From: Naegleria gruberi
Taxonomy: Eukaryota
Reading direction: 5' to 3' (one strand)
Length of the DNA stretch: 64,000 bases
Assembly: GCA_000004985.1 (NCBI GenBank)
Contig: GG738861.1
In this document: positions 13,864-48,678 of the stretch, in pieces
How positions within the stretch are numbered: position 1 is the first letter of the stretch
How the letters are laid out: every line of letters starts with the position of its first letter
Translations under genes and position numbers: made by a program
Notes under the pieces: generated by a model
Database searches by the model: none
What the model saw: only the letters and a program-made list of their open reading frames with translations
What the model was told of the DNA's origin: nothing

Positions 13864-15540
13864 TTATTCTTCATCTTCGTTTGTTGCTTTATCAGAGAGC
13901 AAGAGTCTTCTGTGTTGATAGTTTTCCTTAGCAGAATTTAAATTCTTGTCAAAATACTTGAGATCTGCATCCTTATTAAGCGTGTGATGTAAATTGTAAG
14001 TGAGAAGAATGTTTACAAAAGTAGGAAGAAGAATAAATCTAGCTCTTCTCCACAACAATAATAGTGATATCACTTCCAAAGATCTTATGGAGGTATTAAT
14101 AATATTAACTGTGGTAGGACTGAATTTAGTTCCACTGTAATTTGAACCATTCTCTGAATAATATTGTTCCACCTTTTTACCAAATGGCTTGGAAAGCAAT
14201 GTTGTGACCATTAAATCAGCAACAGCTGGAACTAGACCAGCAACAATGGCCCACTTTTTAATGTGATTATTGAATTGCTTTTGAAAATAATATTAATGCA
14301 ATATTCGCAAATTATTCCAATAAAATTATAAAAAACTTACAACAGGTGAATTAGCTCTCTTCTTCCATGAATAGAGGCAATAGACAACAGTAGAAGCCAC
14401 TTCGAGTGGTACCAAACTAACTCTAGCCAAGAGGGTTTTCATTAATCCATTACCTTCTGTATTCTCTCCAAGATTTAATTTCCCTATCGATTCATTATTC
14501 TGTTTCATGAATTCTAATCGCTTGACTGCCTCTATTGAATCCAAATGAAGTCTATTCTCATAGTACTTTTTAATTTCCTCCACAGATCCATCATAATATT
14601 GATACAGTAACTTGAGGGAAATATCATGTTGATTATTTTGCATTAATTTTTGAATGACATTGTGGAAATTGGTTGGACATTCCTCTCTCAAAATTTTCAT
14701 GGCAATCTTGGAGGAGAATAACTTTTCAAGAATTGCCTTAGTGACCTCACTTGTTAAACTAACTTGCAAAGAATCGACAAGACTTGACAAAAAGTCTCTC
14801 TTCCAAATCAATTGCTTGAGAAAATAGTCATATCGACACAATGAATAAATAGTAGAAAGAGTTTCTCTCCTCACTTCAATATTAATCTCATCAGAATTCA
14901 ATTTTTCCACAAGCTTTTCAATATTCAATCCCATCAATGAAGGAAAGCTTCCATAATTACTAGAATTCAATTGTATCGATCGGAGAGTAGTTATTGTTGA
15001 ATCCATATCAAACCTCTCCTGTTCTATCAATTTCCCAACAAATTGTTTATAGTAAAATAAATAATACATGTACAAGAATCCACTCGTTCCTAAAATTGCT
15101 AACAAGGCTACCCAATAATAATTCTTTGGATTTTTCATCATTTCATTCAGGAAGAAGGGAGTCATTTGGATGGATGATTTTGGAAAATAGGCTAGTACTT
15201 GTTGTTCCATAGCTTCTATTCCATTCTTTAAATTGTAGACTTGAGAAAGAAATGTTGGAGAGTTCTTTTCTTTGATTAATCCTGTCTGTTTTCGTTCTTC
15301 TTCCTCCTTCAATGATGAATCGAGTTGTTTCTCAGGGGGAGTATGATCCTCTTTCTTTATCAACTGAAACAGGGAATTGGAAAATTGTCTTTGATTACAT
15401 AATGATTGAATTTGCATTCCTTTCATTCTACCATTTCCCGAAGAAGAATGAAACAAGAGCCTCCTGTTATTACCACTCTTCACCACAAACATCATCAGAG
15501 ATGATTTATTCATTTTTTTAAATCTAAAATTCTTCATCAC
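13864..15540 (-). CDS. Hypothetical multi-pass membrane protein; 2 exons (14341..15540 and 13864..14277), intron 14278..14340
   Basis: The 404-aa ORF ends just after a GTAAGT donor on the minus strand. A 63-nt intron (GTAAGT...TTTTCAAAAG) joins it in-frame (phase 0) to the 115-aa ORF 13864..14211, giving '...KKRANSPV|QFNNHIKKWAIVAGLVPAVADLMVTTLLSKPFGKK'. The product has several hydrophobic segments. Confidence 0.45.
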
Positions 15541-17245: not shown

Positions 17246-18145
17246 TTATTGTTGCTTAGGTGTTTCAGCTTTAACTTCTTCAACTGGTTCCGCTATCACT
17301 TCTTCGGTTTCTGACATTTCTTGTTGTGGTTCGAAGACTTCTTCAGCTTCAACAGTTTCAGTTGTCTTTTCTCTGAGCATGTCTTCTTCATATTCTCTCC
17401 AAGTCTTGTTGGTCCAACCATATCTACCCAATCTGTGTTCACCTTCAATTTCTGGAACTTCAACCATCTTTACAAGAACACTTGTTTTTCTATTCAATTC
17501 AAGACCGAAACGACCCTTGGCGTGGAATCTCAAAGCTTTACCATACTTTTGCTTATTGACAATACATTCTCTAATCAAAAGACGGTCAGCATTCATTCCG
17601 TGAATGTTTTCGGCATTTAACATACAACTACGAATGAAACGATAAATAATTGGAGCAATCTTCTTGTCGCAACTTTGTAATTGTATGAGTGCTTCCTTGG
17701 CACTAATTCCACGCAACAATTCAGTGACTTCATTAACCTTCTTTGGACCTTGTTTAATGTTAATTTGTCTGAAAGTAACGGTAGGGAGAGTGTCCAAGAA
17801 TTTAGGAGTGACTTTTGGTCTATCTCTCCATGTTTGTCTGGTTTTATTTCTCACAACAGGTTCCTTCTTATTTCTTGGCTTGATATTCAATGTTGATGGA
17901 TCTGGTAAATTCTTCATAATTTCCTCAATATTTGATGATGAAAGGGCGTTGAGTGATACTTGAGCATTTGAGAAGACGGTATTTGTATGGAAGGATTTAT
18001 TGGAAGTTGTAGTAGAATTTAAAAAGTTGTTGATGGCAGCGTAAGCCGATAAAGAAGGAGTGGTGTTATGATGGAAACAACATGATGAAGAAACAATCTT
18101 GTTGAAGACAGAGTGAGAGGATAAAAATTTTTTCATTTTTTTCAA
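17246..18145 (-). CDS. MRPL22: Mitochondrial ribosomal protein uL22m (MRPL22)
   Basis: 299 aa. Core 'AKEALIQLQSCDKKIAPIIYRFIRSCMLNAE...ADRLLIRECIVNKQKYGKALRFHAKGRFG' matches the uL22 family signature. The N-terminal extension is presequence-like and the tail is acidic. Confidence 0.6.
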   Translation of the reverse strand: MKKMKKFLSSHSVFNKIVSSSCCFHHNTTPSLSAYAAINNFLNSTTTSNKSFHTNTVFSNAQVSLNALSSSNIEEIMKNLPDPSTLNIKPRNKKEPVVRNKTRQTWRDRPKVTPKFLDTLPTVTFRQINIKQGPKKVNEVTELLRGISAKEALIQLQSCDKKIAPIIYRFIRSCMLNAENIHGMNADRLLIRECIVNKQKYGKALRFHAKGRFGLELNRKTSVLVKMVEVPEIEGEHRLGRYGWTNKTWREYEEDMLREKTTETVEAEEVFEPQQEMSETEEVIAEPVEEVKAETPKQQ

Positions 18146-18651
18146 ACTTTACAATATTTTTTTTATTGGCTGAAAAATTAAATTCTTCTTTTTATATTGT
18201 TTTATGTAAATTCATTGAGGAGAGAGATAATTTTATGTTTGATTATTGTTTACATATGATTCAATAGTTAGTAATAATTAAGAAATTATTTTTCTAACAA
18301 GTATTTTTCGGATTCCCGAATTTTTTGTTCAACAATTTCTTCATCCCCTATTACTTAGAAAAATATTCAACCTAGTCCATTCTTCAACTCGTGCGCTTTC
18401 ATACTTCATAATACATTCAATACCAACAAGACAAATATTATATGGTACAAGCATTACAATAATAAATAATAACAGGTCAAATATTGTCTCCAGGATAATA
18501 ATCAAGCGTTTTCCGAAACCTAATTGCGCAACAGAATCAAAGGCTTGTGAATTTAAAAAAATGTCTCTTCTCGGATCCCTTTTTTCAAGCCTTTGGTATG
18601 GCTTCATGTGGTAGGTATCTAATCAAATTGATGCATTGTTCATACAGATGA

Positions 18652-19742
18652 TTGTTGTTGCTTTTGAAAACCAACGATCCATTATTGTTGTTGTTATTCT
18701 CTCTTGTTGATTATTATAGGCTCACTGGTGTCATCATTGGTGTCATGATTTTGTTCAAGGTTCTCTTTATTATTTATTGCAAGTACTTCCCTAATGCTGA
18801 TCTCAAGAAGAGATATCAAACTGAATGGGCTATGGTTACAGGTGGTAGTTCTGGTATTGGTGCCAGTTTGGTTGAAAAGTTGTTGAGAGACCAAAAGATG
18901 AATGTTGTCATTGTTGCTTTGGAAGACAAGTTGTTGACTGATTTCACAAAGAAGATGCAAGAAACATACAAGGACAGAAAGGTTGTTGCCATTGGTGTCG
19001 ATTTGAGTAATGATAACCCAGAAACTGGTTACATGAAGTCTATCATTGAAAAGACCAAGGATATTGATATTGGTTGTGTTTTCTGTAATGCTGGTTTCTT
19101 CAGATTGGCTGGTTTTGATAAGGTCAATATTGAAGATCACATGAAGCAAATTGAATGGTAAGTTTTAGTAATGATCATATTTTGATCTAATTCCGATGAT
19201 TATTTCACACCAAAAATTTTCACATCAAATCATGAAAATCAATAATTGAAAACAATCGTTCTAATAGTAATACTCTCTCATATGTCAAGATTACTCACCA
19301 CTTCTTCTGCAAGTTCAAGCAACAAAAGCACAAGAAGCTCATTTCTATGACTTGTAGTTCTGTTTCTTACTTCCCAGCCCCATTCTCTGTCATGTATGGT
19401 GCTACCAAGTCCTTCTTGAACAGTTTTGCTTCTTCATTGGCCATTGAAGGTATTGCCAACAATATTGATATTTTGGCTTATAATCCTCAATACACTCGTT
19501 CTAACTTGTATGCCAACTCTCCAAAATTGAGTGTTTTGGACTTTATGGCTTTGATTGGTTCCGATTGTGATGATGTTGCTCAAGAAATGCTCAACTCTGT
19601 TGGTAAGGTTAATTACAGAGATCAAGGATTGTACTCTATCTTTATGAAGATCTTTGGTGGTATTGTCTTTGACATGAACTGGTTGTTCCCATTGATGGCT
19701 ATGGGTGTTTCTATGGCTCCTGAATTCAAAAAGTTGAACTAA
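18652..19742 (+). CDS. Short-chain dehydrogenase, very-long-chain 3-oxoacyl-CoA reductase (KAR/HSD17B12)-like; 2 exons (18652 or 18745..19157 and 19268..19742), intron 19158..19267
   Basis: Exon 1 carries the 'WAMVTGGSSGIGASL' cofactor motif and the 'CNAGFF' NNAG-type motif. It ends at a GTAAGT donor (phase 2). The AATAG acceptor at 19267 restores the frame, giving '...KQIEW|CNTLSYVKITHHFFCKFKQQKHKKLISMTCSSVSYFPAPFSVMYGATKSF' (catalytic Ser plus YxxxK), which is collinear with HSD17B12. The listed ORF start is TTG; the first in-frame ATG is at 18745, so the true start is uncertain. Confidence 0.65.
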
Positions 19743-24882: not shown

Positions 24883-26018
24883 TTATTCATCTTGCATTTC
24901 ATCAACAGTTCTCTTCTTATTAACTTGTTCAGAGGAAAGTTCAGTAACTTTAACAACACCTCTGATGGCCTTTCTCATTTCTGAATGTTTCAAGGCGTGC
25001 AGAGCATTGGCTGTGATGAGAGATTTACCAACAACAAAACTCAATCCAAATAATCCAACCATATTGGCAACATCATGAGGAGATCTAATGAATGGAAGTT
25101 GATTAATATCTTGTACAATAGCTGTGCTCAACATTTTAGAACTACCATTCGAAAAGATTAATTGTTTAGCCTTAAAGTTACGAATCATGACAATGAGGAA
25201 TTGAATCCAATTGGAAATACCAAACTTTTTCAATTCATCCTTGGAATGAACAACATCTCCATAACAAAATTCCATACAAATATTTCTCCTCAAAGCTTCC
25301 TTCAGTTTGTTCTTTGATTTTCTAATAACTGTATCGAGGGTTGTATCAAATGGAGGTCTAAAGCTCAAAATATCAATATTAGATTTTGTACAAATAGTAC
25401 TCAAATAAGAAATCATATTATCACAAGATAAGTGTTGTCCAATTTGTAAATCCAAAGCAATAATATCAATTTCTTGATAAATTTCCTCCTCAAAGTTCAT
25501 ATTCACAAGTTTCTTGTGCAAATCAGAAGAATATGTCAATCGTGTAAATACTTTAAAATCCCTTCCTCCATCTTGATTAAATAATGAACAAGTAGCATTG
25601 GACTTTTTACGAAGAGGAGCAATGAATGAAATTTTAGAATCATGCTCCAATTTATCCAATGATTCCCTCAAATATTTAACAATTATTGGAAATGTATCTT
25701 GAATGATTTGATTTTGTTGTCCGATATTTGTAGAGTCAATAGTAATATTTAAACAAACTCCTTGCCAACCCACTTTTCCCAAATAAAAGAAGAAGAAGAA
25801 TTTCAGATTATATATATTAAAAACCCCATATGCACACCACACGCGGTGATATTTGCAAATGGTGTGATTCATCATTATAAATATTATTATAATTAATAAT
25901 ACTGTGTGATGATGGAATTTTACATACAATTTCTCAGAAAACTACAACGATGAGCCAGTGACGACAAGTAACTATCCGATGTATCGGCTTTAATTGGGAA
26001 ATTGCACTCCAAGTACAT
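24883..26018 (-). CDS. RPP30: RNase P/MRP protein subunit Rpp30 (Rpp1); 2 exons (25928..26018 and 24883..25772), intron 25773..25927
   Basis: The ORF body carries 'GWQGVCLNITID' (compare 'GYSVVAINHIVD') and 'RSPHDVANMVGLFGLS' (compare 'RGPYDVANLGLLFGLSE'), both characteristic of Rpp30. The listed N-terminus is TTG-started read-through of an intron. An upstream ATG exon (MYLECNFPIKADTSDSYLSSLAHRCSFLRN) ends at a GTATGT donor and joins at an ...GGGAAAAG acceptor (phase 1), giving '...FLRN-L-GWQGVCLN'. Confidence 0.6.
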
Positions 26019-28505: not shown

Positions 28506-29422
28506 ATGTCTAAACAACTCATTCACGGCAACTATCCTGTCAATGGCATGCAAATGTCTTTCAATAAGAATTACTCTCTTATTTGTGCCTTTTTCATTCA
28601 ATTCATTCCACTCTTCGTCTTGCATTTCCTTTTCAAACACCAATACCATCTTGCTCTTCAAGTCATTGTCATTCCAATAGTGTATCTTGTATGTGGAGGC
28701 AGATGGACACTCAACTATCATAATCTTCTCCATCAATTGAGCGGGTTAAATCCAATATTGGATATTTTCTTGGGGGTTGGTTTTGGCCACTTGTTATCTT
28801 TTGGTCCAGGTATGTTATTTCACAATCAATTAATATGTTTAACCAATCAATACCAGGAAAGAAAGGACATGATAGTCATCACAGAATCAATTATGGAGAA
28901 AATGACAAGAGAATTTCATTAGAGAATATTGAAGATTTAAGCGAATCAGATATCGAATACCGATTGAACGAAATCTTGGCCAAAGATGCTGACTTTTGGT
29001 GTAAGAGTTCATTGAATCGTTGGACTCTCTTCTTGAGAAGTTCCCAATTCGAAATGAATTATATTCAATTCTACTTGAAGAATGTTGAGAATGCCAAACA
29101 AAAACTATTCCCAATTTACATGACAAGATTGGCTCTCCTTCTTTTGCCTTACCTCTTCTTGAATCCAATTCTGTACAGCATACATTTGGTCCTATGTCGC
29201 TTGGTTATGGCTTTAATTTTTATGGTCTTTACTACATTGTCACACGAGAAGGGTTGGTTTGATGGTTTTGTGGCCAAATTTTATCCTTTCCAAAAGTGGT
29301 TAGATGTGAATGTCTTTTTAGAGTTGTTGATTGGATATCATGTGCATCATGTTAATGAGCACGATAATCATCATACTTATCCTAAAAGAGATGTCAGTAT
29401 CTTGGCAAACATGTTTGAATAA
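28506..29422 (+). CDS. Multi-pass membrane protein with His-box motifs (fatty-acid desaturase/hydroxylase-like or Kua/TMEM189-like); 2 exons (28506..28809 and 28857..29422), intron 28810..28856
   Basis: Two overlapping plus-strand ORFs in different frames are reconciled by a 47-nt intron (GTATGT...ATACCAG). The spliced product reads '...GFGHLLSFGP-G-KKGHDSHHRINYGEN...' and ends with 'GYHVHHVNEHDNHH', a HxxHH-type histidine box. It has several TM helices. Family assignment is uncertain. Confidence 0.4.
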
Positions 29423-30986: not shown

Positions 30987-31861
30987 ATGGGTAATTGTGG
31001 TTCAAAGAGGGAAACACCCACAACAACATCAGGATCCGATAATAATATGATTGTTATTGGAGGTGGAGGGACAGAAAAGGCTGAAGCCTATGCTCAATTG
31101 GATAATGAAAATGAATTATTCTTTAAATTATTATTATTGGTAGGTTGAAAGTTAGAATAGTGTCGGAAATGCTAATCACGATTCATAATCATGATTTAAT
31201 TTTATTATTAATTGAATGAATTGATTGGATATTAAATTTTGATAGGGTGATAGTGGTGTAGGAAAATCGACGATTTTATCAATGTTCAGTGATCAAAAGT
31301 TTAATCCAAGTCACATTTCTACAGTTGGTGTAGATTTTAAAACTGTTCATTTGAATGTTTCTGGAAAGACAGTGCAACTCCAAGTGGTAAGTTTTCAATT
31401 CATTATCTAGTTGCATTTACAGTTGATAATAGTGGGATACTGCAGGTAGGTTTTCATAATTTAAAGAATTTGAATCTAGATATTTTGTAATTTCAATCAA
31501 ATATCATTTTATTACTTGAATTTTATGAAATTTAGGTCAAGAGCGATACAGATCCATCATAACTGCCTACTATAGAGGTGCTCATGGTATATTACTTACA
31601 TTTGATTTAACGAGACGAGAATCATATGATAATATAAGGCGTTGGTTACAAGATGTTCATAAACATGCACATCAACATACCAAGACAGTTCTTGTTGGAA
31701 ATAAGAAGGATGTGGAACATATGAGAAATGTAACGAGAGAGGAAGCAGAAGAATTAGCCACCGAATTAGGTGTTAGATATTTCGAGGTCAGCGCCAAAGG
31801 AAACGATGGTATAAAGGAAGTATTCGAGGATATTGCCCAACAATTAATTGACTCACAATAA
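30987..31861 (+). CDS. Rab-family small GTPase with an N-terminal MGxC dual-acylation motif and no C-terminal prenylation Cys; 4 exons (30987..31139, 31246..31386, 31433..31445, 31536..31861)
   Basis: Exon 1 encodes MGNCGSK... ending FKLLLL (donor GTAGGT). Exon 2 encodes the P-loop GDSGVGKST and the effector TVGVDFKT (donor GTAAGT). A 13-nt micro-exon TGGGATACTGCAG sits between an AATAG acceptor and a GTAGGT donor and encodes W-D-T-A plus the first base of the next G. Exon 4 continues [25 protein letters not shown]...GNKKD...SAK and stops at DSQ*. Every junction keeps the frame and reproduces the canonical Rab motifs. No ORF of at least 60 aa exists here, so ORF-based calling misses it. Confidence 0.7.
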
Positions 31862-31966
31862 TGTAATAATATTAAATTAGTATATTTTAATTCATTCGAA
31901 ACTCTTTGTAATTATTATTGATTAAAATCTCTAGTTCAATAAATATTTGCTGAACAAATACTAAAA

Positions 31967-33256
31967 TTACAATAATTTATTACTTTCCAATACGTAATAA
32001 TAATTAATAATTGGAAATTCATTTGATTTTTCCTCATGAACAAGAGTAAATTTCATCTTGTCACACAATCTAATCAAACCATACTGCAAACTCGAAATCT
32101 TAATGATTATTGCTGAGGCATTTGTTTCTTTCAATAGATCCTTGATGGTCACTTCAAAGAGTTGTAAAGCTACGTGAAAATTCGGGTCGACCCATTCATC
32201 TTTGGCAATATTAATGTGCTTTTTCAGAGAGAAATCAGTAATTTCAATGACACGAGCTGCATTAGTGAGATTTCTCTTTGTACTGCCACTGCAGAAAATT
32301 AACTTTTCCAAAATGAATTTAGAGATGGCCAATTTTTCAACACTTCCATCCTGTTGAATTTCATATTCTAAATATTTAATATGTCCATGAACAATTTGAG
32401 GTAACTTGTTGAAAACAGTCTCCTCAGAATTTTTCCAACTCTTATCAATGATTAGATATTCGGTAGAGAAGTAATCTTCATGAATGTCTTGCTTATTCCT
32501 ATATTTTTCCAAATTTTTTCTCGTTTCTCTTTGAATATATCTCAGAATCCAATAATATTCAAAGAAACTCAAAGCCAACAAGAATACAGTAAATGAGAAG
32601 AAAAACACCATGATATAAAATACACTGGACAAGGCAGTACTATTCCTTAAAAAACTAATGAAAAAATCCATAGTACCCATTTGTGAAATATCTCCCTTCA
32701 AATTCATTTCGTTGAGGGCTCGATTTGTTATCGAATTAAACACTGAATTTTCCATAAAATCCCCAACCCAAGAAAATTTAACAAGAGCAACCATACAAAT
32801 TGCATTCATTACAACCAATCCCAACAGGAATACCAACATTTTAAAAGGTCCATAATAATATTGCATCAAAGAGTAGAAATTATCAGTGTGATCAACTTTA
32901 GAATTCCAATTCAGAGAAAATAATGATTGATGTGAATGTTTCCAATACTCATCTCTCGATGATTGTTCATCCTCTTCGGCATCAAGCAGAAAATTATATT
33001 GAATGCCATATTCTTGATTGTTTTTCTTCGTTCCGACCACTCCATCATTACTCTTGAACAAGATATTAGGAAATATATTGGTAGGAAGTGAATAATCAGA
33101 CAAGAAGGAAATATCCTTCAAATGCAAAGACAATTCAATTGGTAATTGTTTTTCATCTTGTTCGGAACATGATGAGAAATGAGAGAGAAACTCTTCCTTA
33201 TTCACTACTGCAACTTGACTCATTTTTTTGTATTTATTTTTTTTAATGTAATACAA
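31967..33256 (-). CDS. Hypothetical membrane protein
   Basis: 429-aa ORF. The probable ATG start is MSQVAVVNKEEF (near 33223). There are 3-4 hydrophobic helices in the middle (MLVFLLGLVVMNAICMVALV; FYIMVFFFSFTVFLLALSFF). No recognisable family. Confidence 0.35.
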   Translation of the reverse strand: MYYIKKNKYKKMSQVAVVNKEEFLSHFSSCSEQDEKQLPIELSLHLKDISFLSDYSLPTNIFPNILFKSNDGVVGTKKNNQEYGIQYNFLLDAEEDEQSSRDEYWKHSHQSLFSLNWNSKVDHTDNFYSLMQYYYGPFKMLVFLLGLVVMNAICMVALVKFSWVGDFMENSVFNSITNRALNEMNLKGDISQMGTMDFFISFLRNSTALSSVFYIMVFFFSFTVFLLALSFFEYYWILRYIQRETRKNLEKYRNKQDIHEDYFSTEYLIIDKSWKNSEETVFNKLPQIVHGHIKYLEYEIQQDGSVEKLAISKFILEKLIFCSGSTKRNLTNAARVIEITDFSLKKHINIAKDEWVDPNFHVALQLFEVTIKDLLKETNASAIIIKISSLQYGLIRLCDKMKFTLVHEEKSNEFPIINYYYVLESNKLL

Positions 33257-33483: not shown

Positions 33484-34609
33484 TTAACAACCCAAAACAC
33501 TCTTGGCCTTAATCCAGTGGTTATCACGATCTTCCTTACCATTGAAACCACCATTAATACGTTTAGTACAGGTATCAAAACCAGTTTGATCACATCTATC
33601 AGCATATTGACTCAATCCAGCACGATTCCTATATAGAAATATGATAAATATGTCAAATAATGAATATTCATTAACACTTACCAGAACCAAACAGCAGTAC
33701 GGAATCCAATATCTGGATCAGCAGCTCTAGTTGGATTATTTTCCAAATCAACTCCGAGAGCTTGACCAGCTGCACGATAATTGGCTCTACCAGTAATTTG
33801 AATTGGACCTCTTCCCTTATACTATTGTTCATTGAAATTTAGTATATTAATATAAAGAAAATGAAACTTACTCTAACACCATCACCAGGATAGATATTTC
33901 CCAAATCCTTTCTTCCTTCATAAGCAGCTCCAGAAGCAAATTCAGTAAACCCTAATCAATTAATATTAATATGAATGTTAATTATTAATATTCAGAGTGC
34001 ATAACACTTACAATTCAAATCACCAGATTCATGGGCAATTTGAGCCAAGAAGGCAGTCATTCTACAACATGTACTAATTCCTCCTTCGGCCATGGCACTG
34101 TTCAAAAAAGTAATGTATTGGATAGCCTTTGTACCGGACAAGTTTGGCATGATAGCTCTCAAACTTTGAATGCTAACAGATGCTGAGAATGAAGCATAGC
34201 TCTTAATAGTAACAAAGTTAGAGGCAACATAACCAGAACCAAATGAACCAGAAACAAGATACCTTTTTTTGATTAATCAAACCGGACGGATATGAAATGA
34301 ATGTGAAAGAACAAATAAGAAAGTGGACGGACAGGGTATTTGATTGTTGTAATCGTTCATATACTTTGTTACAGATTCATTGAAAGATTAATTTACATAC
34401 CATGTGTATCCACAACCGTTTTCCATTTGACCACCGAATTTAACTTCAACACCATGAGGGAGTGTGGTCATGAGATTATAATCGGTGCATGGACCATCTC
34501 TCACTTTTAATCCGGATGGAGCATTCACAATCAATGTGTCTCCGTTTTGCAAGCCAAAAACAGCTTGACACAATAATATGAAGGCAATTAAGGCCGTAAA
34601 CAATTTCAT
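33484..34609 (-). CDS. Secreted SH3b-like domain + glycoside hydrolase family 19 (chitinase/lysozyme-type) enzyme; 5 exons (34401..34609, 34012..34262, 33872..33951, 33682..33821, 33484..33628)
   Basis: Signal peptide MKLFTALIAFILLCQAVFG. Then a bacterial SH3-like module (LIVNAPSGLKVRDGPCTDYNLMTTLPHGVEVKFGG...GCGYTW). Then the GH19 catalytic core across four exons: 'GISTCCRMTAFLAQIAHESGDLN', 'YKGRGPIQITGRANYRAAGQALGVDLENNPT', 'AVWFW', 'KRINGGFNGKEDRDNHW'. The four introns are 138, 60, 50 and 53 nt, all GT(A/T)(A/T)GT...AG. Three of them split Trp codons. The spliced product is about 274 aa. This unifies the two partial ORFs 34388..34609 and 33484..33690. Confidence 0.75.
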
Positions 34610-47488: not shown

Positions 47489-48678
47489 ATGGGCAAGAAG
47501 AAACAATCCTCCAATCAAAAGAACAAGACCAAAGATGAAGATTCATCATGGGATGAAGTGGCACAAATGGCTGCTCGTAATGAAGTAGTAGAACAACAAG
47601 GAAAGAAAAAACAAAAATCATCTTCCGAACAATCCAATAATACAACAGCAACAAATAGTTCATCCAACAATACAACAGGTATACCTTTCACTGATCAACA
47701 AATTCGTCATCTTGTTGAAACTTTATCAGCTCGTTTGAAGAATGAAGAGAAGGCTGAATTGGAAACAATTGAACAAGAAACTGTAAAAACAATTTCCGAT
47801 TTAAAGCTTGAAGTAATGCAAAAGCTTGGAATGGATTCTTCTCAATCCGATAAATTAAAGACAGTAACTCAAGTTTTGGATAAACATTTTGATGGAGTTG
47901 CAAAGCAAAATTCAGAATTAAAACGTGAAAATGCTATTTTGACACTCCGATTGCAAACAAGTGAAATCAGAGGTGTAGAAGGTATGTAATTTAACAGATC
48001 TGTTGAAAGATTATTCACACAAAATTGATTTAATTAGTTGACAAACAACTTGCTACCGTAAAGGAACAAAAGGACAAACTTCAACAAATGTGCAATCTTT
48101 TACATGAAAATAATCAAGATATTCTCAATGCTTATGAAACAACAAAGAAGGAACATTCTGAAAAGTATGATTCATTGGCTAAGAAATTTTCTGATGCATT
48201 GGAAGATATTCGTGTAAAGATGGAAGCTCAAGCTGAGGAAAGAATTCAAGTCGAAAAGGAAAAGGAAACTCTTCATTATCAACTTGAAATTTACAAGCAA
48301 CAAATGGATCTAGTTGCAAGACAAGGTCAAAATGAAACAAAGAAGGTTTCCTTAGAAAAGCAATTATACGAGGCTAAATTTGAAGAATTGTTGGACTCCT
48401 TAACCAAGAAAGAAAAGGAAAATTTAACATTGAAAAAGAAAGTCGAAACAGCCAACCATGAAAGAAATATCATGTCCAAACAACTCAAAACATCACAATC
48501 CAAGATGGACGAATTCACAAAAACTGTCCAAGAAACCAAGAATAGTTTTGTTACATTCCAAAATAGGATTAATCATTTGGAAGAAGAGAATAAGGCATTG
48601 AGAGAAAAATTAAAGAAAACTCTTGGTTTAGATCAAGAGGTTAAAAAGAAAGCCACACCATCTGTACAAAATCAATAA
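47489..48678 (+). CDS. Taxilin-family coiled-coil protein; 2 exons (47489..47981 and 48038..48678), intron 47982..48037
   Basis: The ATG is at 47489; the listed ORF start is an upstream alternative start. Exon 1 ends '...RGVEG' at a GTATGT donor (phase 1). A TTAATTAG acceptor joins in-frame to the second ORF. 'KMDEFTKTVQETKNSFVTFQNRINHLEEENKALREKLKK' parallels the taxilin '[37 protein letters not shown]'. Confidence 0.5.

Follow-up and report, generated by a model that had tools for sequence, protein, structure and literature searches.

The 64,000-nucleotide (nt) stretch of contig GG738861.1 of the heterolobosean Naegleria gruberi (GenBank assembly GCA_000004985.1), referred to below as the window, carries at 30987-31861 a gene for a small GTPase of 210 amino acids (aa). 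The product is identical, by exact look-up, to EFC45759.1 / XP_002678503.1 / UniProt D2VB98, annotated as "rab family small GTPase". The gene is probably an intact, selectively maintained member of the Rab1/Rab8/Sec4 group in which the membrane anchor has moved from the C-terminus to the N-terminus, where the protein starts with a putative myristoylation and palmitoylation motif, MGNCGSK. In addition, the invariant WDTAG motif of switch II is encoded by a micro-exon of only 13 nt.

The G domain and Rab identity

Residues 47-206 match the Pfam Ras family (5e-60), and all of the 60 best PDB sequence matches are Rab, Sec4 or Ypt proteins. The list is led by Sec4, Rab8A, Rab10 and Rab1 at ~180 bits, with Rab11, Rab2 and Rab35 among the other top matches, while no Rab5 was found among these best 60. 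When the AlphaFold2 (AF2) model was used as a query in Foldseek, the top 50 hits were likewise all Rabs, with target-normalised template modelling (TM) scores of 0.91-0.94 against Rab8a and Rab1. In this model, based on a 67-sequence alignment, the predicted local distance difference test (pLDDT) score exceeds 90 across most of the G domain and dips at both switch regions.

The nucleotide-binding boxes G1-G5 are intact and include the catalytic Gln (GDSGVGKS, T77, WDTAGQ, GNKKD and SAK), and the corresponding columns are invariant in the 67-sequence alignment. The Rab family motifs RabF1-F5 are recognisable in the alignment with conservative substitutions, namely VGVDF, QLQVW, RYRSII, YYRGA and LTFDLT; the reference motifs, as Pereira-Leal and Seabra reportedly set them out in 2000, are IGVDF, KLQIW, RFRSIT, YYRGA and LVYDIT. 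The sequence matches and the structural model thus support the assignment of D2VB98 to the Rab family and, within it, to the Rab1/Rab8/Sec4 group.

The N- and C-termini

The N-terminal sequence MGNCGSK fits both the MGxxxS/T rule for N-myristoylation and the PROSITE pattern PS00008, G-{EDRKHPFYW}-x(2)-[STAGCN]-{P}, at Gly2, with a Cys close by and basic residues following. The orthologues start with MGACGSR in Naegleria fowleri, MGCAVSK in Willaertia magna and MGNCGSK in an environmental Naegleria-like organism. Gly2, Ser6, Lys/Arg7 and a Cys at either position 3 or 4 are therefore kept in all four heteroloboseans, while the next ~30 residues differ both in sequence and in number. The N. gruberi protein has no cysteine other than Cys4, and this applies equally to N. 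fowleri and the environmental organism. The motif is separated from the G domain by a hydrophilic linker of ~40-44 aa, which includes a hydrophobic patch, MIVI; the N-terminal ~37 residues are disordered in the AF2 model, with pLDDT <50 for residues 3-34.

At the opposite end the protein terminates with QQLIDSQ, five residues past the Pfam Ras match, and has neither a hypervariable tail nor a C-terminal Cys, and none of the motifs CC, CXC, CCXX or CAAX is present. The final helix, alpha-5, spans residues 195-209 in the AF2 model and reaches the C-terminus. The three complete orthologues (N. gruberi, N. fowleri and the environmental one) all end just past this last helix without a Cys. The first-pass annotation of this DNA had described a Rab-family protein with all of the Rab G-box motifs, a myristoylation/palmitoylation consensus at MGNCGSK and an ...IDSQ end devoid of prenylation cysteines, and each element of that description holds, the consensus as a motif conserved in four heteroloboseans.

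Gene structure and the WDTAG micro-exon

As established by hand reading and scripted assembly, the 633-nt coding sequence for MGNCGSK...QQLIDSQ is distributed over four exons, and all three introns have GT..AG borders (Table 1). The ATG lies in an A-rich context, with an in-frame TAA two codons upstream and no AG between the two, which upholds the start at 30987 chosen in the first-pass annotation. These features, together with the fact that the orthologues all start with MG, rule out an additional 5' coding exon. A 3' exon that restores a C-terminal Cys was also excluded: the convergent gene EFC45871 ends 105 nt downstream of the Rab stop codon, so there is no space for a further coding exon. 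Read-through of the TAA by a ciliate-type code, giving ...IDSQQCNNIK...CNYY*, was rejected because Naegleria uses the standard code and the stop is placed identically in the orthologues.

Table 1. Coordinates of the Rab gene, its neighbour and other predicted introns in the window
Feature	Position	Strand	Description
Exon 1	30987-31139	+	153 nt, residues 1-51; start codon, MGNCGSK, linker and start of beta-1 (ELFFKLLLL)
Gly2 codon	30990-30992	+	in exon 1
Cys4 codon	30996-30998	+	in exon 1
MIVI patch	31047-31058		residues 21-24
Intron 1	31140-31245	+	106 nt, GTAGGT...GATAG, phase 0, between L51 and G52
Exon 2	31246-31386	+	141 nt, residues 52-98; G1 P-loop GDSGVGKS, G2 switch I/RabF1 STVGVDF, beta-2, beta-3 to QLQV
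Intron 2	31387-31432	+	46 nt, GTAAGT...AATAG, phase 0, directly 5' of the Trp99 codon
Micro-exon 3	31433-31445	+	13 nt, TGGGATACTGCAG; W99, D100, T101, A102 and first base of G103; DxxG (G3) box, start of switch II
Intron 3	31446-31535	+	90 nt, GTAGGT...ATTTAG, phase 1, within the Gly103 codon
Exon 4	31536-31861	+	326 nt, residues 103-210, TAA at 31859-31861; rest of switch II, GNKKD (G4), SAK (G5), alpha-5
Intergenic region	31862-31966		105 nt between the two stop codons
EFC45871 (NAEGRDRAFT_66141)	31967-33223	-	418 aa, convergent with the Rab gene
Predicted introns from the window scan	1009-1059, 14278-14340, 17552-17625, 18611-18719, 19158-19267, 25773-25927, 28810-28898, 34263-34400, 47982-48037

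The string AG+TGGGAYACNGCNG+GT occurs once in the window, both strands considered, at 31433, and, given the base composition of the window, the interval of 149 nt from exon 2 to exon 4 should contain 3.5e-8 such sites by chance. Splicing of 31386 straight to 31536 leads to a frameshift and a stop after 8 codons, while read-through of intron 2 meets a TAG after 7 codons. Two alternative acceptors of intron 2, with AG ending at 31410 or 31422, were tried and rejected, as the resulting exons of 35 or 23 nt both shift the frame and lead to a stop. In the predicted gene structure the micro-exon is the sole way to keep the 210-codon frame open, and by these counts it is a genuine exon, beyond chance.

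The public and the hand-built models of the gene are identical, and the annotators of the genome therefore did model the micro-exon. Since no other part of the window can supply the codons for WDTAG, the public coding sequence must include the same 13 nt. The agreement of the two models is independent support for the gene structure. The first-pass annotation was correct in placing a 13-nt exon between AG and GT signals and in expecting damage if it is skipped, which takes the form of the frameshift described above. Its prediction that most gene predictors would miss such an exon failed, the same 210-aa product being the public model EFC45759.1. An absence of the gene from the public proteome was ruled out by the exact match to D2VB98. 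The homology match list does not show this entry, because a metagenome fragment of 82 aa stands for its 90%-identity cluster there; absence from that list is not absence from the database.

A crude scan of the 64-kb window for GT[AG][ATG]GT...AG segments bridging two long open frames revealed about a dozen other likely introns of 51-155 nt, with GTAAGT, GTATGT or GTAGGT donors and plain YAG or AAG acceptors. Because these share their donor hexamers and plain acceptors with the three introns of the Rab gene, the latter are typical of the N. gruberi genome. An introner or transposon origin received no support, as the three introns, compared by BLAST with the window and with the N. fowleri locus, gave only chance matches of 9-18 nt. 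A scan for bacterial promoters and terminators stayed at the shuffle level, and is irrelevant to a eukaryotic gene.

Orthologues, intron positions and selection

The N. fowleri orthologue, FDP41_010026, is 81% identical over 205 aa, and its five exons were reconstructed exactly. Two intron positions, both of phase 0, are common to it and N. gruberi: one separates L from G in LLLGD and the other directly precedes the Trp. However, WDTAGQERYRS is contiguous in N. fowleri, there being no intron after WDTAG, and the gene has two introns of its own.

The environmental orthologue was found via the 82-aa cluster representative and is located on contig k141_474851 of ENA ERZ27315067 (locus L006, 157-969). 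It encodes 204 aa, MGNCGSKRE...KQLIESG*, with ~82% identity to both Naegleria species, and consists of six exons, one of them of 28 nt, and five introns of 38-41 nt. Here, WDTAGQ is carried by an 18-nt micro-exon, TGGGACACAGCCGGACAG (L006, 552-569), between two 41-nt introns. The downstream one is of phase 0, after the Gln, and is displaced by 5 nt in the 3' direction relative to the intron 3 site of N. gruberi.

The positions of intron 1 and of intron 2, before the Trp, are common to all three Naegleria-type genes examined. A WDTAG micro-exon is thus present in two of the three lineages, in the form of a variable downstream intron beside a conserved upstream one. This pattern would be compatible with loss of the intron in N. 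fowleri, with sliding, or with two independent gains. The micro-exon results from a lineage-variable intron lying a few bases 3' of the older, conserved intron before Trp99, and could represent a traceable intron gain or intron sliding beside an old intron. An exon of 13 nt would presumably be tolerated if the splice sites pair across the short introns.

Comparison of the G domains of N. gruberi and N. fowleri gave proportions of nonsynonymous (pN) and synonymous (pS) differences of 0.093 and 0.697, respectively. The resulting ratio of nonsynonymous to synonymous substitution rates (dN/dS) is ~0.05, with synonymous sites near saturation, and the gene is therefore under strong purifying selection.

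The public model of the Willaertia magna orthologue, ABK040_000770, ends with ...KYFEVR, and the N. fowleri gene has an intron one residue earlier, in the Val codon of YFEVSAK. The W. magna model is probably cut off by read-through into an unrecognised intron. A search of 1.8 billion representatives returned mostly multi-domain or fused Rab models, plus a genomic open reading frame (ORF) fragment from N. fowleri.

Putatively N-acylated relatives and phylogeny

About 40 of the 120 best database matches start with MG, have a Cys among the five residues that follow and lack any Cys at the C-terminus; the remaining matches are Rab1/8 proteins of the canonical form, with a CC end. These tail-less, putatively N-acylated Rab1-like proteins occur in Amoebozoa and in uncultured eukaryotes, and their named sources include the tubulinean amoebae Flabellula baltica, Arcella intermedia and Nolandella sp. 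In the alignment the N-acyl forms have an N-terminal extension of 35-45 aa and no tail, whereas canonical Rab1/8 have a short N-terminus and a tail of 25-40 aa.

In a neighbour-joining tree built on 162 G-domain columns with 200 bootstrap replicates, N. gruberi, N. fowleri and Willaertia were grouped in 200/200 replicates, and two intronless environmental proteins, P0005 and P0006, joined this heterolobosean clade, also at 200/200. The N-acyl proteins of the amoebozoan type formed a separate, Rab1-proximal clade (130/200). The two N-acyl clades were united in just 17/200 replicates, and a single origin and multiple origins are both compatible with the tree.

The closest relative not named as heterolobosean is P0006 (MGGCLSID..., 50% identity, no C-terminal Cys). 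Its intronless gene (L002, 3546-4184; JGI 3300057246, Ga0506618_01048) is located beside a Smg4/UPF3 gene on a compact 6.4-kb eukaryotic metagenome contig. Another N-acylated Rab1-like protein is deposited under the locust Schistocerca gregaria (LOC126326081; L005, 4001-5385; GCA_023897955.2, JAKZLS010000614.1) and clusters with the tubulinean amoebae. It is encoded on an unplaced 206-kb scaffold, of which the fetched 9.4-kb stretch has 55.7% GC, and probably derives from a contaminating protist rather than from the locust.

Of 36 N-acyl linkers, 35 contain a single hydrophobic PHI-x-PHI patch, represented by MIVI in N. gruberi, at a distance of 12-23 residues from the N-terminus; the linkers are otherwise rich in G, S, N, K and T. 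Composition-preserving shuffling of the amoebozoan-type linkers reproduced the patch at a rate of ~0.08 per sequence, against 0.4-0.5 for heterolobosean linkers; multiplied over representatives of five lineages, these values give ~1e-3, so that the enrichment is suggestive only. Many canonical Rab1 tails also carry a PHI-x-PHI (VNI, VKL or VKV), 15-18 residues from the C-terminus, and it is at this position that the C-terminal interacting motif for REP and GDI lies. In the AF2 model the N-terminal patch is not docked onto the G domain, and this region has pLDDT <50.

A broader reading, which is unlikely though not far-fetched, would make the N. gruberi protein one branch of a widespread "mirror-image" Rab1-like family of single origin, comprising Heterolobosea, tubulinean Amoebozoa and uncultured eukaryotes, in which the tail was functionally transplanted to the N-terminus. 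The conserved PHI-x-PHI, 9-19 residues from the acylated Cys, may then mirror the C-terminal interacting motif, which in canonical Rab1 is found ~15-18 residues from the prenylated cysteines, and the patch might still engage a chaperone of the GDI, REP or UNC119 type.

Proposed membrane cycle and alternative explanations

With the anchor relocated to the N-terminus, Met1 would be removed and Gly2 acylated co-translationally by N-myristoyltransferase, after which a DHHC palmitoyltransferase would S-acylate Cys4. By analogy with the plant protein ARA6 and with Plasmodium Rab5B (PfRab5B), the myristoyl-palmitoyl pair would keep the protein on the membrane. Without geranylgeranyl groups D2VB98 would be no substrate for RabGGTase and REP, and would not be extracted by GDI via its prenyl pocket. 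Effector binding would therefore be governed by the GTP/GDP switch, and membrane residence by palmitoylation and depalmitoylation.

Several points weigh against this interpretation. In the neighbour-joining tree the heterolobosean clade is placed outside both the Rab1 and the Rab8 groups, without support. Modification of Gly2 and Cys4 is proposed on the basis of motif fit and conservation, and myristoylation was judged by consensus rules alone. The splice structure is a predicted one, and the pairing of splice sites across introns in Naegleria, invoked above for the micro-exon, is presumed on general grounds.

The MGNC start could instead be unmodified, in a soluble Rab-like GTPase of the IFT27/RABL4, RABL2 or Ran type that operates in a cytosolic or flagellar complex. 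Several Rab-like GTPases without prenylation motifs do act without a lipid anchor (PMC4736243; PMC3425129), Naegleria builds flagella, and the acylation of D2VB98 is deduced from its sequence only. However, such soluble proteins have no lipidation motif at either terminus, whereas a conserved MGxC is present here, and the G domain is nearest to Rab8/Sec4/Rab1 rather than to IFT27, RABL2 or Ran. The four conserved N-terminal positions adjoin a diverging linker, the only cysteine kept in the protein is Cys4, and the MGC/MGxC start recurs in ~40 tail-less Rab1-like proteins. A soluble protein is accordingly improbable.

The anchor might also consist of myristate alone, or of myristate with the basic residues Lys7 and Arg8 that directly follow the motif, giving weak, reversible and possibly nucleotide-coupled binding of the Arf/Src type without palmitoylation. 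ARA6 with a Cys-to-Ser change, which carries only myristate, is still bound to membranes, although it is mis-targeted (PMC3912013). Nevertheless, all four heteroloboseans and almost all of the ~40 N-acyl Rab1-like proteins have kept a Cys at one of positions 3 and 4. An unused Cys is therefore hard to explain, and dual acylation of the relocated anchor is preferred over this decidedly improbable variant. Hardly any credence can be given to the remaining explanation, that the micro-exon model is an annotation construct over a decaying pseudogene or a locus with mainly non-productive transcripts: 13 nt between introns of 46 and 90 nt is at the short extreme and two competing AGs lie upstream within intron 2, but against it stand the chance expectation of 3.5e-8, a 210-codon frame that is open only with the micro-exon, the dN/dS of ~0.05 against N. 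fowleri, the 18-nt version kept between 41-nt introns in the environmental species, and splice sites that are all of the kind used by introns elsewhere in the window.

Genomic context

Three neighbouring ORFs are exact matches to the N. gruberi NEG-M proteins EFC45869, EFC45870 and EFC45874, encoded on a 507-kb scaffold, and the GC content is 31-37%. Downstream, the Rab gene faces the convergent EFC45871. As only 105 nt separate the two stop codons, the 3' untranslated regions of both genes must be very short or overlapping.

Significance

The gene was already in the databases and N-acylated Rabs were already known; what is apparently new is a Rab1/Rab8-type, heterolobosean example with a WDTAG micro-exon. 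In practice, Rabs are defined by C-terminal geranylgeranylation and by the REP/GDI cycle, and the described exceptions that were found are Rab5 derivatives from plants and alveolates. An anchor swap of the Rab1/Rab8 type in Discoba, with look-alikes in Amoebozoa, implies that relocation to the N-terminus was either repeated or is much older than thought, and points to a class of Rabs whose membrane cycle would run without GDI. For genome annotation, the gene offers a clean, comparatively supported case of a 13-nt coding micro-exon that bears an invariant catalytic motif, and the variant in the sister species could serve to date the flanking intron. A known exception is thereby extended, without overturning current understanding: this is a variation on a known theme rather than a new kind of system.

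In the searchable literature no mention of EFC45759.1 / XP_002678503.1 / D2VB98 was found, nor any description of the protein, of an N-acylated Rab1/8-like family, whether tubulinean or heterolobosean, or of micro-exons in Naegleria.

Comparison with known systems

The closest G domains are those of canonical Rab1/Ypt1 and Rab8/Sec4, with 45-50% identity, ~180 bits, the TM scores given above and G1-G5 boxes identical to those of D2VB98. These proteins combine a short N-terminus with a 25-40-aa tail ending with CC or CXC and depend on REP, RabGGTase and GDI; in D2VB98 the layout is reversed. The N-acyl Rab1-like proteins of Tubulinea (Flabellula, Arcella and Nolandella) and of uncultured eukaryotes share this reversed layout, with an MGC/MGxC start, a linker of 34-50 aa containing one PHI-x-PHI, and an end after alpha-5 without Cys, but form a clade of their own, separate from the heterolobosean one.

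Outside the Rab family, Rheb variants provide a parallel in which the CaaX motif was lost and N-terminal myristoylation and palmitoylation were gained, as mass spectrometry confirmed for one protist (PMC5869587). Unlike D2VB98, however, Rheb belongs to another family of the Ras superfamily and is not a trafficking GTPase. The same 2018 paper, by specialists in GTPase evolution, cites a Rab5-related paralog as one instance of a dually N-acylated Rab.

The targeting logic of D2VB98 is unusual, as the first-pass annotation had suggested, but not unprecedented, ARA6 and PfRab5B being experimentally proven precedents. Both lack a prenylation motif, and in both Gly2 and a neighbouring Cys are needed for myristoylation, palmitoylation and correct membrane targeting (PMC3912013). 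Myristoylation and palmitoylation of ARA6 are required for its targeting to membranes and endosomes, according to Ueda et al. 2001 as summarised in PMC3912013, and to PMC3871812. PfRab5B is myristoylated in vitro, its membrane targeting is abolished by the G2A change, and it is present in the palmitoylome (PMC3912013; PMC4912828).

ARA6/RABF1 of land plants and charophytes resembles D2VB98 in the absence of a C-terminal Cys, in its start with MG and a Cys (MGC in ARA6) and in its N-terminal extension. It is a Rab5-type protein of Archaeplastida, whereas D2VB98 is nearest to Sec4/Rab8/Rab10/Rab1, belongs to Discoba and has a predicted rather than demonstrated acylation. Rab5B of Plasmodium and Toxoplasma likewise has no C-terminal prenylation motif and has an N-terminal Gly2 with a Cys, but is a Rab5-derived, alveolate protein, while D2VB98 falls into the Rab1/Rab8 group and has a longer linker (~44 aa). 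Since no Rab5 occurs among the best 60 PDB matches, D2VB98 is not an orthologue of ARA6 or Rab5B, yet it most likely works as these two proteins do.

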